Shown: positions 5,147-38,908 of the stretch, one piece after another
How the letters are laid out: every line of letters begins with the position of its first letter
Position numbering within the stretch: the stretch's first letter is position 1
Assembly: GCA_021741075.1 (NCBI GenBank)
Contig: JAIOYO010000002.1
Location: 28,848 to 92,847 of the forward strand
Direction: 5' to 3'
Source of the DNA: Flavobacteriales bacterium
Lineage (GTDB): Bacteria; Bacteroidota; Bacteroidia; UBA10329
Length of the DNA stretch: 64,000 bases
Translations under genes and position numbers: made by a program
Notes under the pieces: model-generated
Seen by the model: only the letters and a program-made list of their open reading frames with translations
Database searches by the model: none
What the model was told of the DNA's origin: nothing

Positions 5147-6999
5147 TTTCTGTCCTTCGGAAATGGATATACTCCGTTCAAATTATTTAGATCGGCCAAG
5201 CGGTTCGAGGGGTCAATCGTGATGCTCTCGATCTTTTGCTTTTTCAGACCCACCTCAAAAGTATAGTTTGGATTCGTCCATTCCCAATCAGGAAGTATGG
5301 TCCTGTCCGTTTGCCCTTCTTCGGCTGGTTTTTCGCCACGCATCAACCCAACCGGAATGTAATACCAATTGGTGTTTCCGTCCTTGTCAACGATCTTGAT
5401 ATCTAGTGGCATTGGAAGCTGACCGATTCGTTTCAGCTCGATGACGGTTCGACCCTTCTTCTCTTTTTCAATTTCTTCGATGCTGTAATCAATGACCTGC
5501 GTAGTTCCAACCCACAGGTCCATGAACCAATTGAGTTCAAGTCCAGAGGTTTTTTCCATCACCCGAAGAAAATCGTTCGGAGTTGGATGCTTGAAGCCCC
5601 ATTCATTGAAGTAGCGCTTCATACCTTTCCAAAAGGCTTCTTTTCCAACGATGTATTCCAATTGCATGAGGAAAATGGAGCCTTTTACATAGGATGAAAT
5701 TCCGTAGCAATAGTTGGTCTGAAAATGGTCTGCATGGGTGGTCAGCGGCTCTTCTACCCCGTTTTTGTGCAATTCCGCCAAGCGTTGAATGTCGTTTGCA
5801 TGTGGGTTGGAAACGGGCTTAGAACTCAGCGCATTGAGCACATGATCCTGAGCGTAAGAGGTAAATCCCTCGTCCATCCATGGATATTTACTCTCGTTTG
5901 TGGCAAGCACTCCATAGTACCAATTATGAAATGCCTCGTGAACAGTTACACTTAACAGCCCGCCATAATTTCTGCCGGAAGTTATGAGTGTTGCCATCGG
6001 GTACTCCATGCCTCCATCTCCTCCTTGAATGACCGAGAATTGTTTGTACGGATACTTGCCGAATTTCTCGTTCATTAGGGAGAATGCACCTGTGAATTCA
6101 TTCTGCAATCGCAACCAATGCCCGCTCGTATCAGGCAAATAGAGGAAATGTAAGGTCGGGCCATCGGGAACCTGCGTGGTATGATGCACATAATCCGGGT
6201 CAGCTGCCCAAGCGAAATCGTGTACCTGTGGTGCCACAAAGTGCCAAGTTAGTTTTTCTCCAAGTGGTGGCTTTACCTCCACTCCCGGAGCGGCATATCC
6301 GTGTCCGATCTCGTTCGGGTTTTGCAAATAGCCAGTTCCTCCGATCACGTACTTTTTATCGATGGAGATTTTCACATCAAAATCGCCCCAAACACCATAG
6401 AATTCTCTTCCTACGTAAGGATCAGAATGCCAGCCTTCGTAGTCGTATTCGGCCATTTTCGGATACCATTGCGTCATGGAATAATCGATGCCTTGCGCAT
6501 TATCGCGTCCGCTTCTTCTTACCTGCAACGGAACTTGGGAGTTGAAATCCATCAGAAACTCCGATTTCTGTCCAGGTAGAATTGGCTTGGCAAGATCAAC
6601 TTCCAGAACGGTTCCCTGAACGTGAAATTTCAAGGGCTGTCCATCCTGGGTGAACTTACCGATCTTGTGATAACCGATTTCTTCGGGCGTCAGTTTCGAA
6701 ATTCTGTCGGCTACTCTTGGGTCTGCATCTCTAATGGTCCGAGAACGAATATCCATCATGCTGCCAGGCTGAAAAGCATTGAAATAGAGGTGATAGAAAA
6801 CCTTTGTGAGCGTATCGGGAGAGTTGTTGGTGTACACCAGTTTTTGCTTGCCAGAAAATTGATGCTTGGCCGCGTCCATGTCAATCTCCATTTGATAGGA
6901 GGCGTGTTGCTGCCAATAGCCGTGCTGCGAAAACAGCCGGGAAGAAATTAACATCAAAACCACCACGAGTCTTATCTTATTCATAGAAGTGAAACGCAT
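5143..6999 (-). CDS. M1-family zinc metallopeptidase, secreted
   Basis: HEAFHNWYY...WMDEGFTSY gives HExxH-18-E, with a GGMEYP motif. Signal peptide ends ..SRLFSQ. Confidence 0.75.
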   Translation of the reverse strand: MRFTSMNKIRLVVVLMLISSRLFSQHGYWQQHASYQMEIDMDAAKHQFSGKQKLVYTNNSPDTLTKVFYHLYFNAFQPGSMMDIRSRTIRDADPRVADRISKLTPEEIGYHKIGKFTQDGQPLKFHVQGTVLEVDLAKPILPGQKSEFLMDFNSQVPLQVRRSGRDNAQGIDYSMTQWYPKMAEYDYEGWHSDPYVGREFYGVWGDFDVKISIDKKYVIGGTGYLQNPNEIGHGYAAPGVEVKPPLGEKLTWHFVAPQVHDFAWAADPDYVHHTTQVPDGPTLHFLYLPDTSGHWLRLQNEFTGAFSLMNEKFGKYPYKQFSVIQGGDGGMEYPMATLITSGRNYGGLLSVTVHEAFHNWYYGVLATNESKYPWMDEGFTSYAQDHVLNALSSKPVSNPHANDIQRLAELHKNGVEEPLTTHADHFQTNYCYGISSYVKGSIFLMQLEYIVGKEAFWKGMKRYFNEWGFKHPTPNDFLRVMEKTSGLELNWFMDLWVGTTQVIDYSIEEIEKEKKGRTVIELKRIGQLPMPLDIKIVDKDGNTNWYYIPVGLMRGEKPAEEGQTDRTILPDWEWTNPNYTFEVGLKKQKIESITIDPSNRLADLNNLNGVYPFPKDRK

Positions 7000-8386
7000 T
7001 TTTTAAGATTCTTTTCAATGATTTGGAATCAGAAATTCCATTTAAAGTCATTATAGTAATTGACAAAACAACCACTTCAATCGTCCAATTACTGTATCTA
7101 AAATCATTGCTTGGAGCAATTATCAGATACGGCAGCCAATAAAGCAAAGCGCTAATTCCCATCCCCAATAAAAACAATCTCTGCTCAGAATTTGGTCTAA
7201 AGAAAAGGAATGTCAGAACGATCAATAGCAATGATAAGTATGGAATCAAATTGTAAAAGCCGAACCGAGACAATCTTGTAATTAAATCGTTTTCGATTTT
7301 TAACAATGCTGACTCATGATTCATCGCGTATCTTTTCAAATCTAAGTTTTCGTCTCCTTTCCAATAGCTGGTGTGAAAAATGTACGCCATATAAGGCCTC
7401 CATCTTCCGTTTCCTACTAGTTCGTTTAATGACCGAATTCTAATACGAACATAATCTGCAGGATGATTAATTATAGAGCGTAGGCCGGTATTAAAAAACG
7501 CTTTACCATACTCTGGGTCTTCCCAAACTTTTGGTTTAATTATGCCTGAACCAAAAACTATTGAATTATTGCTAGCATCGTTGTAATAACGTTTTAGTAC
7601 TTCAACATTGGCCGAATCGGCATTCTCGAAAGCATCAACAGGAATTAGCATTTCGTCACTTTCAATAGATAAACCTGCTAGGTTCCAAAACACCAACTGG
7701 TTAATTAAATAGGGGTATCGAACCTCTACGCCAATTTGGTTGATTTTTTTTGACGCAAAAACCATAGAAAGAATAAACGTACAACTAAATAAGACCTTCA
7801 CAAACCATTTAGCTCGCGCTTGCATTAAATCAAACGTCATCATAAAAACCAACGGGATTACAGCGGTAATCGCGTTATGTCTGACACCACATGCAACCAT
7901 CAAGAAAAGCCATATTACTGGCAATAAAAAAAACCAAAACTTTGATTTTTGGCTTTTGATTGGTTTTCTTATTGCCAAATAAAGTCCTAGCGAAAAAAGA
8001 ATGGTTGACAGCATCAGCGCATCTTTCCAAACAGAGGCCATCATAAACCAGGTAACAGGAAAAAAGCCTACAAAAACAAGGGCCAAAGCCTTTGCAACTA
8101 ACCCTCTGTTATTTAAGGCAAACTGCACTATCAAGCCCAACCCAATCCAATAAAGAATGGATTGAAGCACGAGTAATCCTGATGGACCTTCAATAATAGC
8201 ATTGGTCAATTTCCAGATTTGGATAACCATTGGAGGATGCCAGTCTGAAACAGGTATAATTCCATTTAGTTGGTACCATTGAGATAGAGAGTCATTTCCC
8301 ATGCTTCCTGGGAAGAAGAGCCAAATGGAAAAGGAGCAACAAATTGCAACTACAAACCAATAAATGGAATTAGCTTTTAAGGTCAC
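6977..8386 (-). CDS. polytopic integral membrane protein (possible GT-C-like glycosyltransferase)
   Basis: 469 aa with more than 10 predicted TM segments. No soluble catalytic motif recognised. Confidence 0.4.
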   Translation of the reverse strand: MTLKANSIYWFVVAICCSFSIWLFFPGSMGNDSLSQWYQLNGIIPVSDWHPPMVIQIWKLTNAIIEGPSGLLVLQSILYWIGLGLIVQFALNNRGLVAKALALVFVGFFPVTWFMMASVWKDALMLSTILFSLGLYLAIRKPIKSQKSKFWFFLLPVIWLFLMVACGVRHNAITAVIPLVFMMTFDLMQARAKWFVKVLFSCTFILSMVFASKKINQIGVEVRYPYLINQLVFWNLAGLSIESDEMLIPVDAFENADSANVEVLKRYYNDASNNSIVFGSGIIKPKVWEDPEYGKAFFNTGLRSIINHPADYVRIRIRSLNELVGNGRWRPYMAYIFHTSYWKGDENLDLKRYAMNHESALLKIENDLITRLSRFGFYNLIPYLSLLLIVLTFLFFRPNSEQRLFLLGMGISALLYWLPYLIIAPSNDFRYSNWTIEVVVLSITIMTLNGISDSKSLKRILKNAFHFYE

Positions 8387-8388: not shown

Positions 8389-10536
8389 TTATTTGTTTAC
8401 ACCAACCAACTTGAACATGAACGCATATTCAAGGGCCGTTTCTTTAAGACTTTCGAAGCGTCCGCTTGCACCACCATGACCCGCTTCCATATTCGTATGT
8501 AGAAGCAGCAAGTTATTGTCTGTCTTGTTCACTCTCAATTTTGCGACCCATTTGGCTGGTTCCCAATACTGCACTTGACTATCATGAAGTCCGGTGGTGA
8601 CAAGCATATTCGGATAATTCTGAGCCCTAACATTATCGTAAGGAGAATAGCTCAGAATGTAGTCGTAATACTCTTTTTCGTTCGGGTTTCCCCATTCGTC
8701 ATACTCGCTAGTGGTCAGCGGAATGGTTTCGTCCAACATAGTTGTAATTACATCAACAAAAGCCACCTGAGCTACCACGCCTTTCCATAAATCTGGACGC
8801 ATGTTGACCACAGCACCCATCAGCAAACCACCGGCCGATCCGCCCATGGCAAATAGTTTTTCGTTGGTCGTGTAGCCGTTCTTGATGAGGTAATCGCCAC
8901 AATCAATGAAATCTGTGAAGGTGTTTTTCTTGTTCAGAAGTTTACCATTGTCATACCACTGTCGGCCCATTTCCTGTCCGCCACGGATGTGCGCCAAGGC
9001 ATAGACAAAACCGCGGTCGAGCAAGCTTAAACGAACAGAACTGAAATACGGATCCATGCTTGCTCCATACGAACCGTAAGCATAAAGCAAAGTCGGATTG
9101 CTTCCATCTTTCTTTATTCCTTTTCGGTAAACGATGGAAACTGGCACCTGTGTTCCATCGGTTGCAGTTACCATTACTCGTTCGGTTGTGTAATTATTGC
9201 GGTCAAAATCTCCAATGACCGGTTGCTCTTTCAGCAACGTTTTTTCCTTGGTTCGCATGTTGTAATCCAAGGTTGACCAAGGTGTGGTTAGGGATGAATA
9301 TCCATAGCGCAGCACTTCGGTATCGAAATCCATATTGGTTCCGATGTAGCTGGTGTAGGCCGCCTCTCCGAAGTTGAGATAGTGCTCCTGCTTCGATTTT
9401 TGATCCATGATGCGCAGCTGCGGAAGACCATTTGTCCGTTCGTTCACTACCATGAAGTTTTTGAAAATCTCAATGCCTTCAAGCAGTGTTTCTGGTCGAT
9501 GGGCAATCACTTCTTTCCAGTTCGATTTTGCCGGTTTATCAACCGTTGTTTCCATCAAACGGAAATTCTGCGCATCCCAATTGGTGACGATATAAAGCTT
9601 GTTCTCAAAATGTGTGACGTTGTATTCGTGATCTCGCTCACGCGGTTGAATGACTTTGAATTCTCCTTTCGGGTTGGAAGCATCCAACATTCGGTATTCC
9701 GAAGACACTGTTTGAAAAGATCCGATGAAGATGTAGCCCTTGCTTTTTGTTCTCCATGCATAGCAAGAAAACGTCTCGTCTTTTTCCTTGAAAACCTCCA
9801 CATCCGAAGTTACTTCTGTTCCCAGTTCGTGGCGTAGAATGCGGTCTGTGCGAAGCGTTTCGAGATCTTTTCCTATGTAGAAAAAGGTCTTGTTGTCTGC
9901 TGCCCAGGCTCCTCCGCCCGCGCATCCGGCAATGGTTTCAGCATACATTTCCCCAGTCTCCAAATTCTTGAAATACATGGTATAAATTCTGCGGCTTACC
10001 GTATCAATCCCGAATGCCGCAATCTTGTTGTCATCGCTTATTTCAATTCCGCCAAGCGAGAAATAGTCGTGGCCCTCAGCCAATTTATTCTCATCAATGA
10101 AAACCTCTTCGGGCGCGTCCATCGAACCCTTTCTTCGGCAATGCAATTGGTATTCTTTGCCTTCTTCATATCGGGTGTAGTAGAAGTAGCCATTGTCTTT
10201 GTACGGAACGCTTTCGTCATCTTCCTTGATGCGACCACGCATTTCCTTATAGAGGTCTTCCTGAAACTGCTTGGTGTCTGCCATTACGTTTTCGGTGTAG
10301 GCGTTTTCTTCTTCCAGGTATTTGATAACCTCTGGGTTTTCGCGCTCTTTCAACCAGAAATAGTTGTCGGTTCTGGTATGACCATGAATGGTCATTTCGT
10401 GCGGTTTTACTGCCGCAATAGGTGGTTTCATATCTTCTTGACCTTTATTGTTTGAGTTACAGCTAAGAATCGTGGAGACCGACATCACAATTCCAGTAAT
10501 TTTTAAGTATTGATTCATCGTGTATTTGATTCTCAT
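8389..10536 (-). CDS. S9A prolyl oligopeptidase family peptidase (oligopeptidase B-like), lipoprotein
   Basis: GGSAGGLLMG nucleophile elbow and C-terminal alpha/beta hydrolase after an N-terminal beta-propeller region. Lipoprotein-type signal (..ILSCNS). Confidence 0.75.
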   Translation of the reverse strand: MRIKYTMNQYLKITGIVMSVSTILSCNSNNKGQEDMKPPIAAVKPHEMTIHGHTRTDNYFWLKERENPEVIKYLEEENAYTENVMADTKQFQEDLYKEMRGRIKEDDESVPYKDNGYFYYTRYEEGKEYQLHCRRKGSMDAPEEVFIDENKLAEGHDYFSLGGIEISDDNKIAAFGIDTVSRRIYTMYFKNLETGEMYAETIAGCAGGGAWAADNKTFFYIGKDLETLRTDRILRHELGTEVTSDVEVFKEKDETFSCYAWRTKSKGYIFIGSFQTVSSEYRMLDASNPKGEFKVIQPRERDHEYNVTHFENKLYIVTNWDAQNFRLMETTVDKPAKSNWKEVIAHRPETLLEGIEIFKNFMVVNERTNGLPQLRIMDQKSKQEHYLNFGEAAYTSYIGTNMDFDTEVLRYGYSSLTTPWSTLDYNMRTKEKTLLKEQPVIGDFDRNNYTTERVMVTATDGTQVPVSIVYRKGIKKDGSNPTLLYAYGSYGASMDPYFSSVRLSLLDRGFVYALAHIRGGQEMGRQWYDNGKLLNKKNTFTDFIDCGDYLIKNGYTTNEKLFAMGGSAGGLLMGAVVNMRPDLWKGVVAQVAFVDVITTMLDETIPLTTSEYDEWGNPNEKEYYDYILSYSPYDNVRAQNYPNMLVTTGLHDSQVQYWEPAKWVAKLRVNKTDNNLLLLHTNMEAGHGGASGRFESLKETALEYAFMFKLVGVNK

Positions 10537-10593
10537 GACATTTTTTTAGCTGCACAAAATTGTAGAAAGTAAATCACTTGGCTTTTTAAGGAA

Positions 10594-11331
10594 TTATTCA
10601 ACCCCGTGTGTTTCCTTGATTTGATACAGTTCTGCAGGCGGCATTCGCTTCGCAGCTAAGAAATACAAAAGGGTGTTAAACGCCAACGTGAGTTTTTTTC
10701 GAAAAGTCCATTGCGACATACCTACCTCCCGTTTTCGCTTTTCGTAAAACAGTATTGCAGGTTCTTTTTCGATTAGAAGTAATAGTAGCAATCCATTGAT
10801 TCCGGACCTCATCTTGGTTTTCAGTTCGGAGATGAGCAATTTGTCGAACAAACAAAAATCAAAACCACCCGCTGGCAGATTATGTAATCCAAAAATTCTA
10901 AGCATTAGATTGAAAATCCAAGCAAAAAGTTTGGTCGAAACCGAATCGTGTCTGCGTTCTCGTGCGGCAATTATGACCTTATTACCTTCTTTCCATTTTT
11001 GAAACATTTCTTGGATGAGTAGTGGAGGGTCTTGAAGATCGGCACTCATTACCACCACACAATGGCCCGTTGCGTATTCAAAACCGGCAAAAATGGCGTT
11101 GTATGAGCCAACATTGGCTGCCAACCCTATTACCTTGGTTTTATTCGGATTTAAACGATGAAAATGAACCAGCTCAGTAAGCGTTCCGTCTCCGGAGAAA
11201 TCATCGATAAAAACATACTCAAATTTCACGTCAATAGAAAATCGCTTTTCGTTTTCGAGTAGTGCAGCCGTTGTAATGGGAATGTTTTTCTCATTGTTGA
11301 AGCACGGAATGACGACCGAGATTTTAGTCAT
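10594..11331 (-). CDS. GT2 polyprenyl-phosphate sugar transferase (ArnC/GtrB-like)
   Basis: VVIPCFNNE ... FIDDFSGDGT (DXD) ... ADLQDPP, with C-terminal TM helices. Paralog of 56593..57552. Confidence 0.7.
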   Translation of the reverse strand: MTKISVVIPCFNNEKNIPITTAALLENEKRFSIDVKFEYVFIDDFSGDGTLTELVHFHRLNPNKTKVIGLAANVGSYNAIFAGFEYATGHCVVVMSADLQDPPLLIQEMFQKWKEGNKVIIAARERRHDSVSTKLFAWIFNLMLRIFGLHNLPAGGFDFCLFDKLLISELKTKMRSGINGLLLLLLIEKEPAILFYEKRKREVGMSQWTFRKKLTLAFNTLLYFLAAKRMPPAELYQIKETHGVE

Positions 11332-11421
11332 CGGAACTTGAATAAGGGAGAATCGTGCTGAGGATGAAAATTCTGGAATAGGTCTTTCATTACCTTCTCA
11401 TTTGGTGCAAAATCGAAATCA

Positions 11422-12552
11422 TCACTTTTCGAAAAAGCAACTTATGGATTCAATCACCGCGTTTTGGTTGTCTGTTGTAAGGTCGTAGAAAAGTGGAAGC
11501 CGAACCAATCTATTGGTAAAAGAATCCGAATTTTTCAATTCCCTTCCATCATATTTATTTGAAAAATAATCAGACCGATGAAGCGATTGAAAATGAAATG
11601 TAGCCGCAATTCCTTTTTCGGCCAAATAAGAAATCAGCCTATCACGCTGGGGCTTAGATTCGGTAATGAGATAAAATGTATGTCCGTTATGATTGGCGTA
11701 GGCTGGAATCTTAGGTCGCTCAATTTTCCCTTGGTTTTCCAGCGTTTCAAACGCTTCAAAGTAGTTGTTCCAAAGACCAACTCTTCTGGCATTCACATCT
11801 TGAACTTTAGGTATCTGCGCCAAAAGAAAGGCCGAATTGAATGCCGATGGATAAAACGAAGAACCCAAATCGACCCATCCATAGTTGTTGACCTTGCCAT
11901 CTTTGAATTCTTGGCGATTGGTGCCCATGTCCCAAACAATCTCTGCGCGTGAAACAAGTGCTGGATTGTTGATGAGAATCGCACCTCCTTCTCCACAGTG
12001 GATGTTCTTGGTTTCGTGAAACGACAGCGCTCCAAGTGTTCCGATTCCTCCTAGTGCCTTGCCTTTATAGGTGCTTCCTACGCCCTGCGCATTGTCCTCA
12101 ATCATGTGCAGAGAATGCTTATCGGCAATGGCTTTTAGGGTGTCCATTTCGCACGCAACTCCTCCGTAATGAAGCGCGACAATCGCTTTGGTTTTTGATG
12201 TGATGAGTTCCTCAACTCTTGATTCGTCAATGGACGGATGGTCTGGTCGGCTGTCTGCAAAAACGATTTTCGCTCCAAGATTAGCAAAAGCATTTGCCGT
12301 AGTAACAAAGGCATAGGAAGGAATAATAACCTCATCTCCTTCTCCAATATTCAATAATAATGCTGACAGTTCGAGGGCGGAAGTGCAAGAGGTGGTCAGA
12401 AGCGCTTTTTGGTAACCAAACTGTTTCTCCAGTTCTTGTTGACATCGATTTCCGAAAAAACCATTTCCGGCAAACTGTTTTGAATCGAAAACCTCCGATA
12501 GCAAGGCTTGCTCCGTTCCTAACACCAGTGGCCGATTGAATGGAATTTCCAT
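11422..12552 (-). CDS. DegT/DnrJ/EryC1-family PLP aminotransferase, WecE-like (dTDP-4-amino-4,6-dideoxyhexose transaminase)
   Basis: SFHETKNIHCGEGG includes the catalytic Lys. N-terminus MEIPFNRPLVLGTE and C-terminus RLPLFY resemble E. coli WecE/RffA. Confidence 0.75.
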   Translation of the reverse strand: MEIPFNRPLVLGTEQALLSEVFDSKQFAGNGFFGNRCQQELEKQFGYQKALLTTSCTSALELSALLLNIGEGDEVIIPSYAFVTTANAFANLGAKIVFADSRPDHPSIDESRVEELITSKTKAIVALHYGGVACEMDTLKAIADKHSLHMIEDNAQGVGSTYKGKALGGIGTLGALSFHETKNIHCGEGGAILINNPALVSRAEIVWDMGTNRQEFKDGKVNNYGWVDLGSSFYPSAFNSAFLLAQIPKVQDVNARRVGLWNNYFEAFETLENQGKIERPKIPAYANHNGHTFYLITESKPQRDRLISYLAEKGIAATFHFQSLHRSDYFSNKYDGRELKNSDSFTNRLVRLPLFYDLTTDNQNAVIESISCFFEK

Positions 12553-12557
12553 TTACC

Positions 12558-13565
12558 TCAAGCAAATTGATTTGCGTTCAGTCCCAACCAATCTAAACTC
12601 GAATTGCAGAAAATATTCTCCAAATCCTGTTGTGGAAGATTCATCTCTTCAATGAATTTTCCGATTTCCAAATCGCCTAGCGGGAATGGATAATCGCTTC
12701 CCAAACAGACTTTTTCGGAACCCACTTTGTCAATGATGAATTTAAGAGCATCTGCATCATGTGTAATGCAATCGACCCAAAACTTGCTTAGGTAATTGCG
12801 TGGGTTTACATCATTGTCAATAGCCACGAGGTCGGGGCGGCAATTGAAACCGTGTTCAATTCTACCAATTGTTGGAATGAAAGAGCCACCAGCGTGGGCG
12901 AAGCAAACTCGAAGGTTTGGCAGTTTTTCAAATATTCCAGCAAACACCATCGAGCAAATAGCTCTTGATGTTTCGGCTGGCATTCCTACCAACCACGGCA
13001 GCCAGTACTTCTTCATTTTGTCCATTCCCATCATGTTCCACGGGTGCACAAAAACCGCCATTCCGAGGTCTTGACAGGCTTCGAAAATGGGAAAGAACTC
13101 AGGTTCGTCAAGATTCTTATCGTTTATGTTTGAACCAATTTGCACGCCTGGAAATCCCAGCTCTTTGCAGTGCTGCAATTCATTAATGGCAAGGTCAGTA
13201 TCTTGCATGGGAAGGGTTCCCAACCCGATGTAATGCTTCTTGAATGGCGCGATGGATTGGGCCAAATCATCGTTCAAAAAACGTGCTACCTCCGCGCCAT
13301 CTTCGGGCTTTGCCCAATAGGAAAACAGCACCGGAATAGTACAAACTACCTGCACTTGCGTGTTGAATTGTGCATACTCCGGAATACGAATTTCTGGGTT
13401 CCAGCAGTTCTCCGTTATCTGTCGGAAGAATTTACCGCCTTGCATCATATTGGCCGTTCCAGGTTCAATATGGTCGAGCATGATAAAATCGCCATAGCCA
13501 AACTTGCGGGCAAAATCGGGCATTTTGCGCGGCATGATATGGGTATGCATGTCTATCTTAAGCAA
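12558..13565 (-). CDS. amidohydrolase-2 family protein (ACMSD-like metal-dependent decarboxylase/hydrolase)
   Basis: MLKIDMHTHIMP N-terminal HxH metal motif with TIM-barrel amidohydrolase_2 organisation. Confidence 0.55.
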   Translation of the reverse strand: MLKIDMHTHIMPRKMPDFARKFGYGDFIMLDHIEPGTANMMQGGKFFRQITENCWNPEIRIPEYAQFNTQVQVVCTIPVLFSYWAKPEDGAEVARFLNDDLAQSIAPFKKHYIGLGTLPMQDTDLAINELQHCKELGFPGVQIGSNINDKNLDEPEFFPIFEACQDLGMAVFVHPWNMMGMDKMKKYWLPWLVGMPAETSRAICSMVFAGIFEKLPNLRVCFAHAGGSFIPTIGRIEHGFNCRPDLVAIDNDVNPRNYLSKFWVDCITHDADALKFIIDKVGSEKVCLGSDYPFPLGDLEIGKFIEEMNLPQQDLENIFCNSSLDWLGLNANQFA

Positions 13566-22092: not shown

Positions 22093-22968
22093 ATGACAAT
22101 CCAAAATCCTCAGGTTTTTACTGACAAGCAACTCCAACGCCATTTTGATGACTTCGGGTTTGTGCGAATTAATTTGCTCAATCTGGAGGAAACAGAGGAG
22201 CTGTTAAATTCTTATGAAGCACTTCCCCGCCCACGAGAATCTGGGTTTCACTGTACTATGTTTAGTCCAGATGCGGATTTGAAAACGTCAGTCGATTCCA
22301 TTATTAAAAACGCTTTGGTTGAAAAACTGAAACCACACTTTAAACAACACACTGCTCTGTATGGAAATTTTATGGTGAAAGAGCCAGGAGAAGAAAGCGA
22401 CTGGTTTGTGCACCAAGATTGGACCTATGTGGATGAAGCACAACATGTAAGTGTTGCCGTTTGGGTCCCACTAGTCGACCTCACCGAGAAAAACGGTGTT
22501 CTGTGTGTTGTTCCTGGTTCCCAAAAGATTCCAAATACGGTTAGAGGCCCAGGGGTGCATGATCCGTGGACAGATTTGCATCAAGTCATCAAAGAAGAAT
22601 ATCACGAAAAAGTTTTTCTAAAAGCAGGAGAAGCTATAGTGTGGCACCATCGTTTGGTTCACTTCTCGCCACCAAACATGTCTGATGAGCCCAGAATTGC
22701 AGCAACGCTTATCTGCACTCCAACCAATGTGCCGGTGTATCACTACTGGAAAGATCCATTGCAACAAGGAACTTTGGCCAGAAAATACCAGGTCGATTGC
22801 CGTTTTTTCATGAACTATGACATTGTGAATGAGCCAGCTAATGTGCCGTTTTCAGGACTGGTAGACAGCCACTTCCCAGATTTGGACCTGAACAGACTGA
22901 AGTCATTTTCCAATGAGCCTGTCGATGCTAGCTTTGTACACGGACCTCCACTGACAACCAATGCATAG
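22093..22968 (+). CDS. PhyH-family Fe(II)/2-oxoglutarate dioxygenase
   Basis: HQDWTYVDE (HxD facial triad) ... HHRLVHFSPPN distal His. Confidence 0.7.
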   Translation: MTIQNPQVFTDKQLQRHFDDFGFVRINLLNLEETEELLNSYEALPRPRESGFHCTMFSPDADLKTSVDSIIKNALVEKLKPHFKQHTALYGNFMVKEPGEESDWFVHQDWTYVDEAQHVSVAVWVPLVDLTEKNGVLCVVPGSQKIPNTVRGPGVHDPWTDLHQVIKEEYHEKVFLKAGEAIVWHHRLVHFSPPNMSDEPRIAATLICTPTNVPVYHYWKDPLQQGTLARKYQVDCRFFMNYDIVNEPANVPFSGLVDSHFPDLDLNRLKSFSNEPVDASFVHGPPLTTNA

Positions 22969-23812
22969 ACGGGTATTAAAAGATGCTGAGCTGCAAGCCA
23001 GATTCGATCAGGACGGATTTGTGGTCATTGATATGTTCTCAAATCAAGAATTCAACGAGTTGAAATCGATTCTGAGCCAGCTCAATGAGGAGAAGAAAGA
23101 CCTACAGTTCAATATCAATACCGATTACAAACTCAGTTTTTTCAGCACAGAACCTAATTATAGGAAACAGGTATTCAATTCGATTAGCGCGTTCTGCATG
23201 CCTGTTGTAAGTCGGTTTTTGGATGAATATGAACCGCTCATCGTGAACACGTTTGACAAGGAACCTGGCGAAGGAGAAGTACCCATTCATCAGAATTGGA
23301 CATTCGTTGATGAATCGAAGGCCACTTCCGTATCGGTTTGGATACCGATGATAGACACCACACGCGTCAACGGAACAATGGAGGTGGTGAAAGGCAGCCA
23401 TCGCGTTCTTTCAAGCTATCGTAGTCCCTCTATTCCGTGGGTGTTTGAAAACCTGCGGCATGAGATCAGAACCAAGTACATGGAACCGATTGATGCAAAG
23501 GTCGGTCAGGCCGTGATTCTGGATGATAGTATTCTGCATTACACCTCGCAAAATGATAGTGAAACCGTTCGGTCGGCCATTCAGCTGATTATGAAACCGA
23601 ACGATGTGCCTGCCATTCATTATCACATACCTTCCACCAGCTCTGTTGGTGTAGATGTATATGAGGTGGATTGGGAATTTTTCACACGGTTCAATATGAA
23701 TGAACCTCCTACAGGTGTGAAAAAGGTAGATGAATTGACCATCCACCAACATTTCCTTACCGAAGCTGAATTGGTTGATAGGATTGCACCATTGAAAGTC
23801 GCTGATCGCTGA
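22961..23812 (+). CDS. PhyH-family dioxygenase paralog with HxN variant of the iron motif
   Basis: IHQNWTFVDE aligns to the HxDW..VDE motif of its neighbours but carries Asn in place of Asp. Distal His in ILHYTSQN. Overlaps the upstream gene by 8 nt. Confidence 0.6.
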   Translation: MHRRVLKDAELQARFDQDGFVVIDMFSNQEFNELKSILSQLNEEKKDLQFNINTDYKLSFFSTEPNYRKQVFNSISAFCMPVVSRFLDEYEPLIVNTFDKEPGEGEVPIHQNWTFVDESKATSVSVWIPMIDTTRVNGTMEVVKGSHRVLSSYRSPSIPWVFENLRHEIRTKYMEPIDAKVGQAVILDDSILHYTSQNDSETVRSAIQLIMKPNDVPAIHYHIPSTSSVGVDVYEVDWEFFTRFNMNEPPTGVKKVDELTIHQHFLTEAELVDRIAPLKVADR

Positions 23813-23815
23813 CCT

Positions 23816-25384
23816 ATGCCAACATCCGGTTTAGCCAAATCCTTCATTGATTTGAAAACACTTGACGAGCGTGGTTTCACGTTGGTTTCCGCTCTTTCGC
23901 TAAAGGACATACTGAACCTGTTGATATTTTTCGATAAGCATCCTCATACTTCGAAGGGAGGCTCGTTTCATTCCACCATGGAACAGACAGAAGTTGACTA
24001 CAAGAAAATGGTTGACGAAAAGCTAAAGTCTGTTCTTAGTGACCAGATAGAACTGATGCTGCCGGGTCATGAGATCCTGTTCGGCAACTTTTTGGTGAAA
24101 GAGCCCGGGGCGAGCGGAAGTGTGGGTATTCACACCGATTGGTCGTATGTTGACGAATCCGTTCACACGTCATACAACCTCTGGATTCCTTTGACGGATG
24201 TGAATGAGCACAACGGATGTCTACATGTGTGGCCCGAAAGTCACAGGTTCACTCCACGTGTACGGACAACCCCCTATGTTCCGTTCAGCACTAAAGAGCA
24301 GCAAATGGTCCAGTTCAACTCTGTAGCGGTTCTATTATCTGCAGGACAGGGAGTGCTCTACCATAGCGGCCTTCTTCATTATTCCAACCCGAACAATACA
24401 CCAGATAATAGACCGGCCATTGCCTTGGTCATTGTTCCGAAGGGCGCACAACCGATGCATTACTATCGGCCAGAGCCGAACGGGTCAGAAGTGGAAGTCC
24501 ACAAGGTGGACCGCTCGTTTTTCCTTACGCACCTGCCTCAGTCCCGACCAACAGGAACCAAATTAGTGAAGACTGACGAAGTGCCGGTGTTCACATTAAG
24601 TACCGAAAGCGTACTGGAATCAGATGCTACGCAAACCAAGGTTTCTAACTACTATGACGAGTGGACCGGGGCTTACAGGGATATTTATGGAGATGTAATC
24701 CAAGCATTCCGTCCGAAAGATGAGACCGCTCTTCTCAACTATATCATGCACAGCGCTAGGATTGAAAACGGCCAAAGGATAGTCGATGCCGGTTGCGGCA
24801 TCTGCGGTCCTGCCATTTACTTCGCTCAGAACCGGGCGGTGCACATTGAGGCCATTACCCTATCGGGCGTGCAGACATCGATTGCAAACGAACGTATTTC
24901 TGCGGCCGGTCTACAAGAACTGATAACCTGCACTCAAGGCGATTTCCGGCTAATGGATTCTCTTGTAACCAGCGGAATGGATGGTGTCATCTTCTTAGAA
25001 TCGCTGGGGCATAGCACCAATGCACAAATGGCCATTCTGGCAGCCTACAGGGTGCTAAGGACGGGCGGCTTCATCTACATAAAGGACTTTTTTCCGCGAG
25101 AGTCGGCCAATCCAGAGATTCAACAGCGTATCGATAAAACAATAGACAACATCAATCGAGCATATAACTATGCCGTGCTCGACCTGAATAAGACATTGAG
25201 CCACCTTCGGAAAGCAGGGTTTGTAATAGATTTCATTCAAAGCCTGAACTTTGAAAGCGATACAGAAATTAGACGCAATTTTGAATCACAACACGGCATA
25301 TCGGTTTTCGAAGGAGGGGAGTTTATGCCAGCAGAGTGGCTCGAAATAAGGGCTGTTAAATATTTTGAGGAGGATGATAGATAA
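23816..25384 (+). CDS. fusion protein: PhyH-family dioxygenase (N) plus class I SAM-dependent methyltransferase (C)
   Basis: N-terminal half has GIHTDWSYVDE ... LLHYSNPN. C-terminal half has MTase motif I RIVDAGCGICGPAIYFA and post-I acidic/Rossmann pattern. Confidence 0.7.
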   Translation: MPTSGLAKSFIDLKTLDERGFTLVSALSLKDILNLLIFFDKHPHTSKGGSFHSTMEQTEVDYKKMVDEKLKSVLSDQIELMLPGHEILFGNFLVKEPGASGSVGIHTDWSYVDESVHTSYNLWIPLTDVNEHNGCLHVWPESHRFTPRVRTTPYVPFSTKEQQMVQFNSVAVLLSAGQGVLYHSGLLHYSNPNNTPDNRPAIALVIVPKGAQPMHYYRPEPNGSEVEVHKVDRSFFLTHLPQSRPTGTKLVKTDEVPVFTLSTESVLESDATQTKVSNYYDEWTGAYRDIYGDVIQAFRPKDETALLNYIMHSARIENGQRIVDAGCGICGPAIYFAQNRAVHIEAITLSGVQTSIANERISAAGLQELITCTQGDFRLMDSLVTSGMDGVIFLESLGHSTNAQMAILAAYRVLRTGGFIYIKDFFPRESANPEIQQRIDKTIDNINRAYNYAVLDLNKTLSHLRKAGFVIDFIQSLNFESDTEIRRNFESQHGISVFEGGEFMPAEWLEIRAVKYFEEDDR

Positions 25385-26210
25385 GATTGCTTTTGACAGA
25401 TTGGTGTTCACAGACCCAGAATTGAATTCACGCTTCAAATCTGAAGGATATGTGATTGTCAAAGGGTTCCTGTCTGAAAACGAGGTGGAACGCCTTGCAA
25501 CGTTCTATGAAGAACATCCTTCTGAGAGACGTACTGGTTTTCACACGACACTGCACGACAGCCGACCTGATTATCGCGAGTCGGTAACGAATGAGGTGAA
25601 TGACGTGTTCTACCCCAAAGCACAGAAATTACTGGTTGGATATGAACCTGTTTTTTCGTGTTTTACAGTAAAAGAACAGGATGCAGAAAGCGGTTTTGAC
25701 CTTCACCTTGACTGGAGCATGGTGGATGAAAAACAGTTCACTTCTGTCACCATCTGGTCTCCACTTACAGACATCACAGATACAAACGGTCTACTCTGGG
25801 TTCTTCCTGGAAGCCACCAATTCGAATATACCATCCGTGGAGGACCTGGATTGAGACTGTGGTGCGAAAAGCCTGCGCATGAGTGTTCTCAACGTTTTTC
25901 CATCCTTGAGCTGAAGTTGGCAAAAGGAGACGCCATCATCTACGACCATCGGTTATTTCATGGGTCGCCACCAAATCAAAGTAATCAGCGAAGGGTAGCA
26001 ATCAACTATTCAAGTATTCCTATAGCTGCTGAGTCCTTGCACTACCTGTTCAATGGAGATTCAGAAGTGCGAAGCCGATGTATCTCTCCTAATTACTATC
26101 ATCATCATATCCTTGACTATCTAGAAAATTGTGGTTTATACATAAACCGTAAAGAAATTGGAGGCAGCTTTCTTACCCAATCAGATGTGAACACATTAGT
26201 TAGAGACTAG
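25365..26210 (+). CDS. PhyH-family Fe(II)/2-oxoglutarate dioxygenase
   Basis: DLHLDWSMVDE ... RLFHGSPPN. Overlaps the upstream gene. Confidence 0.7.
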   Translation: MRRMIDKIAFDRLVFTDPELNSRFKSEGYVIVKGFLSENEVERLATFYEEHPSERRTGFHTTLHDSRPDYRESVTNEVNDVFYPKAQKLLVGYEPVFSCFTVKEQDAESGFDLHLDWSMVDEKQFTSVTIWSPLTDITDTNGLLWVLPGSHQFEYTIRGGPGLRLWCEKPAHECSQRFSILELKLAKGDAIIYDHRLFHGSPPNQSNQRRVAINYSSIPIAAESLHYLFNGDSEVRSRCISPNYYHHHILDYLENCGLYINRKEIGGSFLTQSDVNTLVRD

Positions 26211-26274
26211 ACAGCGGCACCGTGACGAATGGAAATATAGCAATGAATCTTATTATAAGTCTAAGGCACCAAAT

Positions 26275-27966: not shown

Positions 27967-28172
27967 TAGTGCACAAACTCATATGTGTTGATGATGCGCT
28001 TCGGCTGATTATTCCCGACATTCGTAACCGAGGATTTTTCTTATTCTGAGGTTTCCTGATTGGAACACAAAGTCTGCATTGTACAAACAAAATAAGAAAA
28101 GAAACAGCGTAATCAACCCTTGATTCATTGGATGCTATTAACGCCATTCGACTAAAACTTCTAGGTTAGCTA

Positions 28173-29036: not shown

Positions 29037-29098
29037 TTGATTCATATCATTTTTCACAGAGGCGTATTGGATAGCTTTGATTTAGTAAATTAAAATGA

Positions 29099-30736: not shown

Positions 30737-30745
30737 CATGTTTAA

Positions 30746-32092: not shown

Positions 32093-32126
32093 ATTTTCTA
32101 TTTAGGTTACTTTAATCAACGAACTT

Positions 32127-34812: not shown

Positions 34813-34909
34813 TTTTGAGAAATTCATTCAAATTGGCTTGATTGCAAGTTATATTTGAGACAATGCGATTTTACGGCTACGCGCAATAAATTCCGTTAAT
34901 TACTGGAAA

Positions 34910-38836: not shown

Positions 38837-38908
38837 TTTTTTCGTCTTCTTCTATTTGAGCCTTTATAGATTTGACATTGGGAACCACCAGTTTCCTACC
38901 TTCTATCT

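Follow-up and report, generated by a model that had tools for sequence, protein, structure and literature searches.

Two diverged WecE-like aminotransferase and GtrB-like glycosyltransferase gene pairs as candidates for amino-sugar decoration of a surface glycan in a Flavobacteriales bacterium

In a 64,000-nucleotide stretch of a Flavobacteriales genome (contig JAIOYO010000002.1, positions 28,848 to 92,847; hereafter, the window), we examined two gene pairs, each encoding a sugar aminotransferase and a GT2 glycosyltransferase. In the reading that we favor with moderate confidence, both pairs would represent the donor-making cytoplasmic half of GtrA/B/C-type 'three-component' extracytoplasmic glycosylation, specialized for amino-dideoxyhexoses, and they probably act, together with membrane enzymes, in the extracytoplasmic decoration of a surface glycan. 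The observations behind this reading are the protein families and folds, the catalytic and lipid-phosphate-binding residues, the linkage of the genes across genomes, and purifying selection.

Relationship of the two gene pairs

The open reading frames of pair 1 are on the minus strand, at 11422..12552 (aminotransferase 1, 376 aa) and 10594..11331 (GT2 copy 1, 245 aa), and those of pair 2 are on the plus strand, at 55482..56612 (aminotransferase 2, 376 aa) and 56539..57552 (GT2 copy 2). These coordinates agree with the initial annotation, except that the reading frame of GT2 copy 2 extends 5' to 56539. Two alternative starts are available for this gene, namely, 56593, the choice of the gene callers (319-aa cluster P0121, 100% identity), and 56605 (giving 56605..57552), a start that would make the two genes overlap by 8 nt at the aminotransferase stop (ATGGATAA); relatives have the same junction.

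Alignment of the two pairs, which the initial annotation had proposed as a check, shows 38% identity over 340 aa for the aminotransferases (E = 6e-79) and 33% identity over 235 aa for the GT2s (E = 6e-44). Judged from these alignments, the likeness is far beyond chance and also far from that of a recent duplication, and the pairs are homologous but old and diverged, as claimed, and not near-identical; their age and divergence are consistent with two separate decorations. The term 'clear paralogs' holds as far as homology is concerned but is valid in a broad sense only, because closer relatives of each copy are found in other genomes than within this genome. Both aminotransferases match the Pfam family DegT_DnrJ_EryC1 (284 and 216 bits for aminotransferases 1 and 2, respectively), and both GT2s match Glycos_transf_2 (78 and 81 bits for copies 1 and 2). 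The previously noted GT2 motifs GSYNA, ADLQD.P and KW.EG are present in both copies, whereas the motif described for the aminotransferases is found in aminotransferase 1 (SFHETKNIHCGEGG) but not in aminotransferase 2 (SFDHLKMITSYEGG), where 'GEGG' is 'YEGG'; both enzymes have the PLP lysine.

Aminotransferases

Aminotransferase 1 passes the cut-offs of both WecE models of NCBIfam (NF008687, 505.1 bits, cut-off 375; TIGR02379, 452.7 bits, cut-off 434.85), scores 383 bits against the solved WecE structure 6BLG compared to 172 bits against ArnB, and is predicted to be a WecE-type dTDP-4-keto-6-deoxyhexose 4-aminotransferase. Aminotransferase 2 falls below both cut-offs (322.3 and 291.5 bits), scores 231 bits against solved WecE and 112 bits against solved ArnB, with 153 bits for the PseC model, and appears to be a divergent WecE-like sugar aminotransferase. 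Its orthologs in two related loci, L012 (72% identity) and L011 (59%), both encoded directly upstream of a GT2, also remain below the NF008687 cut-off (316-328 bits vs. 375). For the ArnB model, the scores were 209 bits (aminotransferase 1) and 144 bits (aminotransferase 2), with an equivalog cut-off of 631. The PLP lysine lies in SFHETK in aminotransferase 1 and in SFDHLK in aminotransferase 2, both aligning to WecE 6BLG, and the Asp of the D-x-A-Q/H motif lies in EDNAQG and EDNAHG, respectively.

By these scores, both enzymes are WecE-like (505 and 322 bits) and not ArnB-like (209 and 144 bits). WecE itself acts on dTDP-4-keto-6-deoxy-D-glucose and forms the galacto (Fuc4N) epimer. Given the WecE-type scores and that no ArnA, ArnD or ArnT-family protein was found in the window, 4-amino-arabinose and lipid A form the weaker branch, and a 4-amino-4,6-dideoxyhexose would be the better candidate for the sugar product. 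No rmlA/rmlB-type gene was detected among the window ORFs scanned against Pfam and NCBIfam, and no acyltransferase or deacylase adjoins either pair.

GT2 glycosyltransferases

GT2 copy 2 aligns to solved GtrB over its full length (106 bits, residues 37-333), across the GT-A domain, the juxtamembrane helices, the TM hairpin and the C-terminal hairpin, and to solved ArnC with 100 bits. In NCBIfam, GT2 copy 1 scores highest with PgfS (120 bits) and ArnC (73 bits), neither of which reaches its cut-off; copy 2 scores 109 bits in the ArnC model (cut-off 529), and all curated equivalog scores of the GT2s for polyisoprenyl-phosphate glycosyltransferases (PI-GTs) are under cut-off. Mutagenesis of GtrB has shown that D96, Q98, R122, R125, D157 and R200 are essential, and R122 and R200 have been called universally conserved among lipid-phosphate-using glycosyltransferases (PMC4728340). 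Copy 1 keeps equivalents of all these six residues, and copy 2 keeps equivalents of D96, R122, R125, D157, R200 and R290. The segments ADLQD and GG[FY]D, with the metal-binding Asp and Gln (D96, Q98) and the catalytic D157, are conserved in both copies, as is the segment of the second juxtamembrane helix (JM2), and the first Asp of the DXD motif (GtrB D94) is replaced by Ser or His in both (SAD, HAD). A third GT2 of the window, at 32127..32873, lacks R122, D157 and R200. The full-length matches to GtrB and ArnC and the conserved lipid-phosphate-binding arginines support the earlier assignment of the pair GT2s to the GtrB/ArnC/DPM1 type. Both fall into a single subfamily of such predicted polyprenyl-phosphate glycosyltransferases, which spans the Bacteroidota.

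A lack of C-terminal TM helices had been named beforehand as evidence against this assignment. Copy 2 has two such helices (residues 265-283 and 294-312 of the 337-aa ORF by hydropathy), whereas copy 1 has none, an internal alignment gap spanning TM1-TM2; it has no R290 equivalent and retains the two juxtamembrane helices along with the tail at its C-terminus. Copy 1 thus seems to have arisen by internal deletion of the hairpin with the tail kept. The TM-less form is common to about 22 clusters (244-263 aa, down to 46% identity), the nearest relatives of copy 1 (45-50% identity) have the hairpin at a length of about 308 aa, and in locus L004 a hairpin-bearing long GT2 occupies the same chromosomal position as copy 1. 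Comparison of copy 1 to its ortholog in L006, the closest relative (GT2s 80% identical), yields a dN/dS of 0.13. From this comparison and the clusters, the hairpin loss is a trait of the clade that is kept under purifying selection. TM topology varies within the GtrB family, and human DPM1 has no TM segment of its own (PMC4728340). Given this precedent, the intact juxtamembrane region and R122/R200, and purifying selection, the hairpin loss does not refute a role in polyprenyl-phosphate glycosylation.

Linkage to amino-sugar genes across the subfamily

Among 80 GTDB species-representative loci of the GT2 subfamily, a DegT aminotransferase gene is directly adjacent to the GT2 gene (≤300 nt) in 46, and an FdtA-like gene is located within 3 kb in 50. 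The usual cassette, of the QdtA/QdtC/QdtB type, combines the GT2 gene with genes for an FdtA ketoisomerase, an acetyltransferase of the hexapeptide class and a QdtB-like aminotransferase that scores 411 bits to 3FRK. Linkage to sugar aminotransferases is therefore a family-wide trait, and pairing of the two gene types is typical, as the initial annotation had it. The coupling to QdtB-like enzymes in the relatives implies, however, that the usual donor of the subfamily would be a 3-amino and not a 4-amino sugar.

The island of pair 1

Pair 1 is located in a hypervariable island between an amidohydrolase gene and an S9 peptidase gene, and its two genes are separated by a 90-nt gap. At the same site, L095 carries WecE-like, FdtA, acetyltransferase, QdtB-like, long GT2 and polytopic genes, L094 and L009 only the WecE-like, QdtB-like and TM-less GT2 genes, and the window only the WecE-like and TM-less GT2 genes, the WecE-like gene being the only sugar-nucleotide-modifying gene left in its island. 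The WecE-like and TM-less GT2 genes thus co-occur in L009, L094 and the window; in L009 and L094, the QdtB-like gene lies between them and overlaps the GT2 gene by 8 nt. In L001, L002, L004 and L015, the WecE-like gene adjoins genes for an acetyltransferase resembling WecD (97 bits) and for another, long GT2, and in L006 a methyltransferase gene lies upstream of the TM-less GT2. DNA similarity to the relatives begins exactly at the start codon of GT2 copy 1. The adjacency within pair 1 is not conserved and appears to result from loss of the intervening QdtB-like gene kept by the relatives, which makes the functional coupling of the two genes uncertain; we infer that they work together.

The module of pair 2

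The two genes of pair 2 overlap and are conserved together within a syntenic module: the adjacency of aminotransferase and GT2 is conserved in L012 and L011, and in L012 the module comprises genes for a flippase-like protein, a cytochrome c, two polytopic proteins, the aminotransferase, the GT2, a UbiA-like protein and a GT32-like protein. The flippase-like membrane protein (50048..51034, plus strand, 328 aa), a candidate carrier-lipid flippase, matches LPG_synthase_TM (PF03706) with 87 bits and the TIGR00374 'flippase-like domain' with 40.3 bits (cut-off 43.2); its gene is syntenic in L012 and, more distantly, in L013. No GtrA, ArnE/F, GtcA or MATE flippase was found in the window, nor any small multi-TM ORF of GtrA/ArnE/ArnF size. 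The 453-aa UbiA-superfamily-like polytopic protein (57489..58850, plus strand), whose gene overlaps the end of the GT2 gene, has an NDxxDxxxD motif in its translation, an L012 ortholog at 73% and a score of 45.8 bits in the PRK12875 prenyltransferase model (cut-off 205), with no Pfam or PDB sequence match. It is followed by a GT32-like DXD glycosyltransferase (58795..59625, plus strand, 276 aa; Pfam Gly_transf_sug, 31 bits), a conserved module partner that is 94% identical in L012. PseH N-acetylates a UDP-4-amino-4,6-dideoxy sugar, and a PseH-like GNAT acetyltransferase encoded at 41706..42266 (plus strand; PseH, 55.8 bits, cut-off 93, the best NCBIfam match) is a candidate N-acetylase of the 4-amino sugar; a 33%-identical homolog is encoded in L013 about 0.85 kb from the GT2 homolog.

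Polytopic proteins and GT-C candidates

Large polytopic proteins are encoded near both pairs, as noted initially: hydropathy analysis identifies proteins of 469, 525, 569 and 453 aa with 8, 9, 9 and about 10 segments, respectively. GT-C glycosyltransferases are membrane enzymes that use lipid-linked sugar donors, and the initial annotation had anticipated such transferases close to both pairs. The 469-aa protein near pair 1 (6977..8386, minus strand, 8 hydrophobic segments) and the 569-aa protein near pair 2 (53635..55344, plus strand, about 9 TM segments and a C-terminal alpha/beta domain) are both predicted to have a GT-C fold, an assignment at the fold level only, with weak Foldseek E-values (2e-4 to 1e-1) and TM-scores of 0.3-0.45. 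For 6977..8386, the AF2 model has a pLDDT of 85.5 and a pTM of 0.87, and the top ~29 Foldseek matches in PDB are all GT-C proteins (STT3, 2e-4; AglB, ArnT, PglB, PMT, DPY19, ALG and Emb; TM-score 0.3-0.45). For 53635..55344, the corresponding values are 86.9 and 0.89, and the top 22 matches are all GT-C proteins (ArnT, 4.7e-4; PglB, STT3, DPY19, AglB, ALG12/9 and AftA).

A feature of GT-C enzymes is a conserved acidic residue in the first extracytoplasmic loop. The 469-aa protein has no Pfam or NCBIfam match and just 10 homologs; in this family, D32 (GNDS, behind TM1) is conserved almost without exception, and K121-D122 and R169-H170-N171 do not vary. A gene of the family follows that for the S9 peptidase in each of three loci (the window, L094 and L095), coming just after it in L094 and L095. 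The 569-aa protein has no Pfam, NCBIfam or PDB sequence match, and in its family of 56 representatives E40 and D44 follow TM1 and only R184, E242 and D290 are invariant; in both families, these placements refer to sequence order, not topology. Its L012 ortholog (60%) is encoded at the same position upstream of the aminotransferase. The second polytopic candidate near pair 2 (52047..53624, minus strand, 525 aa, 9 TM), with a syntenic ortholog in L012 (64%), resembles GtrC (STM0557), a family that modifies O-antigen; its match to PF19528 (DUF6056 / GT_STM0557_N; E = 3.7e-6) reaches 26.4 bits, just below the 27-bit cut-off. In each module, the polytopic genes rank with the most diverged ones, and the GT-C candidates of the islands have no BLAST match to each other, as expected of acceptor-specific enzymes.

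Discussion

From these observations, we infer the identity and stereochemistry of the sugar, a dTDP donor, the flippase and the acceptor, and the pathway would proceed as follows. The WecE-type PLP aminotransferase would convert an NDP-4-keto-6-deoxyhexose, for aminotransferase 1 most likely dTDP-4-keto-6-deoxy-D-glucose, to a 4-amino-4,6-dideoxy sugar, which, for pair 2 only, might be N-acetylated by the PseH-like GNAT. The GtrB/DPM1-like GT2 would then move the amino sugar onto polyprenyl phosphate at the inner membrane face, GT2 copy 1 acting as a peripheral enzyme that, like human DPM1, is held at the membrane by amphipathic juxtamembrane helices or some partner. The lipid-linked sugar would be flipped, with the PF03706 protein as the only candidate in the window, and attached to an already exported acceptor by the GT-C-fold protein 6977..8386 at site 1 and by 53635..55344 and/or 52047..53624 at site 2. 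The acceptor would most likely be a polysaccharide, e.g., one exported by the Wzm/Wzt-type ABC transporter of the window. Several observations speak against this pathway: the genes of pair 1 are not neighbors in relatives, no rmlA/rmlB-type gene was detected among the window ORFs scanned, neither pair adjoins an acyltransferase or deacylase gene, the window has no classical flippase, the GT-C assignments are at the fold level, copy 1 lacks the hairpin and the R290 equivalent, and the DXD motif of both GT2s has its first Asp replaced.

Alternatively, the genes of pair 1 could be accidental neighbors after gene loss in a hypervariable island, with the WecE-like enzyme feeding a cytoplasmic (Leloir) pathway, e.g., for a Fuc4NAc-type repeat-unit residue, the TM-less GT2 keeping its ancestral donor (3-amino/3-acetamido-3,6-dideoxyhexose or other) or being on its way out, and only pair 2 being a true functional pair. 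The reductive series at one site from L095 over L094/L009 to the window, the methyltransferase gene upstream of the TM-less GT2 in L006, the onset of DNA similarity at the GT2 start codon, and the WecD-like and long GT2 neighbors in L001, L002, L004 and L015 all argue for this scenario. We nevertheless consider it rather unlikely: under purifying selection and with all catalytic residues intact, the TM-less GT2 must still be supplied with a donor, the WecE-like gene is the island's sole remaining sugar-nucleotide-modifying gene and co-occurs with it in L009, L094 and the window, and the window, L094 and L095 all have a GT-C-fold gene of one family after the S9 gene.

Two further readings concern the fate of the sugar. 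An ArnB/ArnC/ArnT-like modification of lipid A phosphates with a cationic 4-amino sugar, conferring resistance to cationic antimicrobial peptides, shares the overall logic (aminotransferase, ArnC-like GT2, GT-C), ArnT is the top fold match of the 569-aa protein (4.7e-4), a free amine is possible because no N-acyltransferase is adjacent, and an OlsC/LpxO-like lipid hydroxylase (75 and 45 bits), a KAS III and an acyl-AMP ligase in the surrounding cluster hint at lipid chemistry. This is improbable given that the ArnB (209/144 vs. 631) and ArnC (73/109 vs. 529) scores are far below cut-off, that both aminotransferases are much nearer to WecE, and that the Pfam/NCBIfam scans of the window ORFs found no ArnA-type dehydrogenase/formyltransferase, ArnD deformylase or ArnE/F; moreover, no polytopic protein matches the ArnT/PMT_2 Pfam families, the sole sequence-level match is to the O-antigen-modifying GtrC (STM0557) family, and the ArnT fold match is no better than those to OST, PglB and DPY19. 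We regard as equally improbable that the TM-less GT2, and perhaps both GT2s, are ordinary soluble enzymes that add the sugar directly to a growing glycan or other cytoplasmic acceptor. The missing TM helix of copy 1, the replaced first Asp of the DXD motif and the sub-cut-off PI-GT equivalog scores would fit such a role, but the nearest kin (45-50% identity, about 308 aa) have the hairpin, one of them at the same site (L004), copy 1 still has R122, R200, the two juxtamembrane helices and its C-terminal tail, and in human DPM1 there is a PI-GT that has no TM segment of its own (PMC4728340).

For the favored extracytoplasmic reading, the closest analogue appears to be wxcK–wxcO of Xanthomonas, where, as here, amino-dideoxyhexose sugar-nucleotide genes are clustered with a GT2 and membrane proteins; the comparison with WxcL is by description, and the roles of WxcL and WxcO are putative. 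In Xanthomonas campestris, wxc region 3 also has wxcM, an isomerase/acetyltransferase. The rhamnan O-antigen loses its FucNAc side branch in mutants of the aminotransferase gene wxcK and of wxcN, which encodes a small membrane protein (PMC4878081); WxcL is a GT2, and WxcO, a membrane protein, is hypervariable among strains (PMC13133917), a variability resembling that of the polytopic genes in the window. The Bacteroidota cassette (46-50/80 loci; FdtA, acetyltransferase, QdtB-like, GT2) has the same make-up. In contrast, the window aminotransferases are WecE-type (4-amino), not FdtB/QdtB-type (3-amino), no ketoisomerase or GtrA-like protein was found in the window, and one GT2 lacks the hairpin.

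Comparison with GtrA/GtrB/GtrC (Shigella and Salmonella phages; Synechocystis GtrB 5EKP) shows full alignment of GT2 copy 2 with D96, R122, R125, D157, R200 and R290 kept, and a match of the 525-aa protein to the GtrC (STM0557) N-terminal family close to its cut-off (E = 3.7e-6, 26.4 vs. 27 bits). Here, however, the likely donor is an NDP-amino-dideoxyhexose, not UDP-glucose, there is no GtrA in the window, D94 is replaced, copy 1 has no hairpin, and the setting is a chromosomal island, not a prophage. The order of steps in ArnB/ArnC/ArnT, from a PLP aminotransferase over ArnC-type transfer to undecaprenyl phosphate to a GT-C enzyme, is similar, and copy 2 matches solved ArnC over its full length (100 bits), but the window lacks ArnA, ArnD, ArnE and ArnF, and none of its polytopic proteins is an ArnT-family member by sequence. 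As in GT2 copy 1, human DPM1 combines a GT-A domain and juxtamembrane helices with no TM of its own (PMC4728340), although small separate subunits (DPM2/DPM3) anchor DPM1 and no such partner was found for copy 1; the tail that copy 1 seemingly retains mediates tetramer contacts in GtrB.

Similarity to WecE/WecD of enterobacterial common antigen (dTDP-Fuc4NAc) extends to the passed WecE cut-off of aminotransferase 1 and the WecD-like gene in the islands of relatives. WecF adds Fuc4NAc in the cytoplasm onto the lipid II intermediate, whereas the WecE-like gene in the window neighbors a GtrB-like GT2, with no adjacent WecD-like gene, no WecF in the window and no rmlAB among the window ORFs scanned. 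Pentofuranose three-component systems employ a UbiA-family PPPRS, a MATE flippase and a GT136 GT-C enzyme, and no GtrB-type enzyme (Kelly et al. 2024, PMC11127046). Shared features are the post-export addition of side chains to ABC-transporter-dependent glycans by a GT-C enzyme from a polyprenyl-phosphate sugar and the UbiA-superfamily-like gene directly 3' of GT2 copy 2; the window UbiA-like protein is, however, weakly assignable (45.8 bits), and neither a phosphatase domain nor a MATE protein was detected.

The loss of the membrane anchor from GT2 copy 1 is unusual. Known PI-GTs use UDP- or GDP-sugars, the characterized amino-sugar PI-GTs (ArnC, FlmF2, LgmA and PpgS) use N-acylated donors, and we know of no biochemical precedent for a PI-GT donor of the kind proposed here. 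In a more specific version of our proposal, which we advance tentatively and consider unlikely, the clade of GT2 copy 1, DPM1-like through precise excision of the hairpin with the juxtamembrane helices and the tetramerization tail kept, would act with a WecE-type enzyme and no acyltransferase to transfer a 4-amino-4,6-dideoxyhexose, un-acylated and cationic, from its dTDP donor to the carrier lipid, and the amidohydrolase-S9 site would be a serotype-switching island. If this holds, GT2 copy 1 would be the first dTDP-dependent, free-amine PI-GT, and the site would serve as a serotype switch for periplasmic amino-sugar decoration in environmental Flavobacteriales.

Two divergent aminotransferase and glycosyltransferase pairs

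Two pairs of an aminotransferase and a GT2 glycosyltransferase, as proposed in the initial annotation, were confirmed as four open reading frames: pair 1 on the minus strand (aminotransferase 11422..12552, GT2 10594..11331, 245 aa) and pair 2 on the plus strand (aminotransferase 55482..56612, GT2 ending at 57552). The shared motifs quoted for them are present, except that 'GEGG' reads 'YEGG' in copy 2. The two copies are indeed divergent: in pairwise comparisons, the aminotransferases are 38% identical (E = 6e-79) and the GT2s 33% (E = 6e-44), and nearer relatives are found in other genomes, so that a recent in-genome duplication was rejected.

Both aminotransferases match Pfam DegT_DnrJ_EryC1 and retain the PLP lysine. 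Copy 1 scored 505 bits on the NCBI WecE equivalog model (cut-off 375) and 453 bits on TIGR02379 (cut-off 435), compared to 209 bits on the ArnB model, far under the cut-off of 631; among solved structures, its best match is WecE (383 bits, against 172 for ArnB). Copy 2 reached 322 bits on the WecE model, under the cut-off, as did its orthologs in other genomes (316-328 bits), and matched the solved structures of WecE and ArnB with 231 and 112 bits; judged by these scores, it is a separate WecE-like lineage of uncertain substrate. No rmlA/rmlB-type gene was found among the scanned window ORFs.

Both GT2s match Pfam Glycos_transf_2. The solved structures of GtrB (106 bits) and ArnC (100 bits) align with the pair-2 enzyme end to end, including the transmembrane (TM) hairpin. 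The curated equivalog models (PgfS, ArnC) all scored far under cut-off for both enzymes. The search for a small membrane ORF of the GtrA, ArnE or ArnF type gave only two candidates in the window, both antisense inside peptidase genes. The suggestion that the pairs might make an Ara4N-like decoration of lipid A is probably wrong: the tests for Arn membership fail and no Arn accessory genes were found among the scanned window ORFs, leaving the Arn pathway as a functional analogy only.

Linkage of the GT2 subfamily to amino-dideoxyhexose genes

Scanning GTDB species representatives with motifs of the GT2 subfamily yielded 80 loci, mostly from Bacteroidota (Chitinophagales, Cytophagales, Saprospiraceae, Hymenobacter), with some from Ignavibacteria and Kapaibacteria. 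A DegT aminotransferase gene lies at most 300 nt from the GT2 gene in 46 of these 80 loci, and an FdtA-like gene at most 3 kb away in 50 of 80. The canonical cassette consists of FdtA (3,4-ketoisomerase), a hexapeptide acetyltransferase (both confirmed by Pfam), a 368-aa aminotransferase that is QdtB-like (411 bits to 3FRK), and the GT2, the genes of the last two overlapping by 8 nt. Among the genera with this cassette are Hymenobacter, Rufibacter, Pseudarcicella and Chitinophaga (loci L046, L051, L070, L017 and L031), which include cultivable relatives. At many loci, large membrane proteins (450-650 aa, 8-15 TM segments) adjoin the GT2.

This linkage across the 80 loci strongly supports, at the family level, the idea that the aminotransferase feeds a polyprenyl-phosphate GT2. 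Judged by its gene content, the usual partner pathway would lead to a 3-acetamido-3,6-dideoxyhexose, not to the WecE product. The survey indicates that a whole Bacteroidota subfamily of GtrB-like enzymes is dedicated to amino-dideoxyhexoses. Such dedication would require dTDP-sugar donors, and we know of no polyisoprenyl-phosphate glycosyltransferase (PI-GT) for which the use of such donors has been demonstrated. Surface antigens owe much of their diversity to extracytoplasmic 'three-component' glycosylation, whose characterised donors carry hexoses, N-acetylhexosamines, Ara4FN or pentofuranoses. Our literature search found no characterised polyprenyl-phosphate-linked Fuc4N, Qui3NAc or Fuc3NAc synthase, and no WecE/ArnC combination in Bacteroidetes; in both cases it returned only Xanthomonas wxc genetics.

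A maintained GT2 form that lacks the transmembrane hairpin

Residues D94, D96, R122, R125, D157, R200 and R290 are essential in GtrB, and R122 and R200 are described as universally conserved among glycosyltransferases with lipid-phosphate acceptors (PMC4728340). Alignment with GtrB shows that D96, Q98, R122, R125, D157 and R200 are retained in both pair GT2s, and that both have another residue in place of the first DXD Asp (SAD and HAD). The C-terminal TM helices expected of such enzymes were found by hydropathy in pair 2 (two helices) but not in pair 1, whose GT2 has none. In this 245-aa protein, as in some 22 database clusters of 244-263 aa with identities down to 46%, an internal gap falls exactly on TM1-TM2; the second juxtamembrane helix remains, as does a C-terminal tail matching the terminal beta-hairpin of GtrB in the alignment. 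In the short homologs P0018 and P0021 (database entries), a 'YLWR' motif with the R290 equivalent is still present. Relatives with 45-50% identity are about 308 aa long and possess the hairpin, including one at the same chromosomal position in another genome (L004).

We rejected the reading of the short GT2 as a pseudogene, as some 22 clusters carry it as an intact ORF and comparison with its 80%-identical ortholog in locus L006 gave a dN/dS of 0.13 (ratios for more distant comparisons were discarded, dS being saturated). With the catalytic residues also kept, the TM-less form is, on sequence evidence, being maintained rather than decaying. Human DPM1 has the same architecture, with no TM segment of its own (PMC4728340). 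A PI-GT that lost its hairpin yet stayed under selection amounts to a natural experiment on what the TM helices of these enzymes do, a question posed by the structures of GtrB and DPM1.

A third ArnC-like GT2 in the window (32127..32873, plus strand, 248 aa) is TM-less too and has a similar C-terminal tail. Since the equivalents of GtrB R122, D157 and R200 are missing from its alignment with GtrB, it probably does not act as a lipid-phosphate glycosyltransferase, or acts in a different way.

Pair 1 in a hypervariable island

The array hemB, Amidohydro_2, island, S9 peptidase, M1 peptidase and DUF192 is syntenic in relatives. The genes flanking the island share 86-94% identity with those of relatives, against only about 50-80% for the genes within it, and what the island contains is entirely different even among close relatives. 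The Amidohydro_2-S9 peptidase site (8389..13565) was compared with seven loci (L001, L002, L004, L006, L009, L094 and L095); alternative contents include WecE/WecD/GT2, FdtA/QdtB/GT2/methyltransferase, a sulfotransferase, small EamA pairs, ATP-grasp and HAD genes. From this gene content, we regard the site as a hypervariable glycan-modification island. A second hypervariable site lies between the S9 and M1 peptidase genes. At L004 (4717..7866) and L006 (6776..9907), genes for FdtA, a DegT aminotransferase, a long GT2 and a SAM methyltransferase form a cassette, which points to an N-methylated 3-amino-3,6-dideoxyhexose linked to polyprenyl phosphate in these close relatives of the organism.

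The GT2, TM-less or long, is always the last island gene or the next before a polytopic gene. The L095 island holds a WecE-like gene, FdtA, an acetyltransferase, a QdtB-like gene, a long GT2 and a polytopic gene; those of L094 and L009 hold WecE-like, QdtB-like and TM-less GT2 genes; and in that of the window, only the WecE-like gene and the TM-less GT2 are present, 90 nt apart. Given this series, the adjacency in pair 1 is most simply explained by loss of an intervening gene. No deletion scar of a QdtB-like gene is detectable in the 90-nt gap 5' of the GT2, because DNA similarity to relatives begins exactly at the GT2 start codon. In four other loci (L001, L002, L004 and L015), the neighbours of the WecE-like gene are an acetyltransferase resembling WecD (97 bits) and a long GT2 of another kind. 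Functional coupling within pair 1 is nonetheless plausible, since the WecE-like enzyme is the sole sugar-nucleotide enzyme remaining in the island and stands beside a GT2 still under selection. The pairing logic of the initial annotation was right, but the annotation was incomplete with respect to the TM-less GT2 and the non-conserved adjacency in pair 1.

Pair 2 in a conserved module

The entire pair-2 module is syntenic at locus L012 with 60-94% identity, and comprises a PF03706 flippase-like protein, a dihaem cytochrome c, two polytopic proteins (the most diverged genes in this comparison), the aminotransferase, the GT2, a UbiA-like and a GT32-like protein, and one radical SAM protein. The aminotransferase-GT2 pair is retained in L011; L013 has the GT2 with a cytochrome c, a flippase-like protein and a PseH-like GNAT, and no aminotransferase. 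From these three loci, pair 2 appears to be a conserved functional unit within a large conserved cluster. The GNAT of the window (41706..42266) has as its best NCBIfam match PseH (55.8 bits, under cut-off), an enzyme that N-acetylates a 4-amino-4,6-dideoxy sugar.

The gene of a UbiA-like polytopic protein (57489..58850, plus strand, 453 aa; L012 ortholog 73% identical) overlaps the end of the pair-2 GT2 gene. The protein has an NDxxDxxxD motif and a weak UbiA-prenyltransferase match (45.8 bits), and PDB sequence and Pfam searches with it were empty; by analogy with pentofuranose three-component systems, it could be a polyprenyl-phosphate phosphoribosyltransferase-like enzyme. Kelly et al. 2024 describe the general three-component concept and a UbiA-based variant (PMC11127046); the assignment in the window is too weak to equate the two.

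We also observed a cytochrome bd subunit-I-like protein (47261..48556, plus strand, 176 bits) with no adjoining subunit II gene, and a dihaem c-type cytochrome (51113..52021, plus strand) flanking the flippase-like gene. This trio co-occurs with a GT2 homolog in the distant L013, an association of redox proteins with a glycosylation module. Adjoining the module, 59698..63916 encodes three paralogous radical SAM proteins with a SPASM/twitch domain N-terminal to the radical SAM core, a domain order seen by Pfam in 59698..61122 and 61116..62741. The former, the only one compared with NCBIfam, scored 149.5 bits on 'N_Twi_rSAM' (cut-off 170), and one of the three proteins is 92% identical in L012.

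Candidate GT-C transferases

Hydropathy confirmed large polytopic proteins near both pairs, and the expected GT-C candidates are present among them. Next to pair 1, a 469-aa protein (6977..8386, minus strand) has no family hit and only ten homologs; its confident AF2 model (pLDDT 85.5, pTM 0.87) retrieved GT-C enzymes as all of its top ~29 PDB fold matches. An Asp directly after TM1 is nearly invariant in this family, which also comes after the S9 gene in L094 and L095. The sole identical database entry (P0238) is called as 417 aa, 52 residues shorter, a start that would cost the protein TM1 and its conserved GNDS aspartate; the longer ORF is supported by homologs 455-462 aa in length.

Directly 5' of aminotransferase 2, a 569-aa protein (53635..55344) with a C-terminal alpha/beta domain gave an AF2 model (pLDDT 86.9, pTM 0.89) whose top 22 PDB fold matches are only GT-C, ArnT being first (4.7e-4); Pfam matched 0 of 29 members of its family, and no PDB sequence match was found. 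Beside it, a 525-aa protein (52047..53624) matches the GtrC (STM0557) N-terminal family with E = 3.7e-6, just below cut-off. All three are GT-C candidates, by fold-level assignments with modest scores. Pairwise BLAST among the polytopic proteins and against the GT-C of the L001 island found nothing significant, nor did hhalign between the 569-aa and 469-aa families (probability 0.7%).

A large neighbouring cluster and the proposed pathway

The region 22093..49751 contains six PhyH-domain dioxygenases (one a methyltransferase fusion, one with a double domain), two B12-binding radical SAM proteins, an OlsC/LpxO-like lipid hydroxylase, an acyl-AMP ligase, KAS III, a GNAT, an FG-GAP/ASPIC protein, a PAP2-like protein and two further polytopic proteins, one at 37187 with a 'YADES' motif. 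Parts of this cluster recur in L011 and L013, and its content suggests a heavily tailored glycolipid or glycan as its product. A Wzt/TagH-like ABC ATPase (30752..32092, plus strand, 159 bits) has an extension of about 200 aa C-terminal to the ATPase domain. Its Walker A region lies in frame 5' of the first ATG/GTG/TTG (31058), so that no canonical start codon precedes the ATP-binding site; either a non-canonical start or a sequencing error would account for this.

The observation of two pairs holds, and its initial interpretation is partly supported. The evidence best supports a three-component pathway of the Gtr type, acting on an amino-dideoxyhexose: the sugar would be synthesised on a nucleotide, moved by the GT2 to polyprenyl phosphate, flipped across the membrane and joined to its acceptor on the extracytoplasmic side by a GT-C enzyme. 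Given the ABC-2/Wzt-type exporter in the window, an ABC-transporter-dependent polysaccharide is a reasonable guess for the acceptor. [quoted passage not shown]

Possible biological roles are evasion of phages or grazers and charge modification. The island between two housekeeping genes is a possible marker of glycan serotype diversity in uncultured Flavobacteriales. These findings overturn no known principle; the family-wide linkage of amino-dideoxyhexose genes to PI-GTs and the hairpin-less PI-GT clade merit a biochemist's attention.
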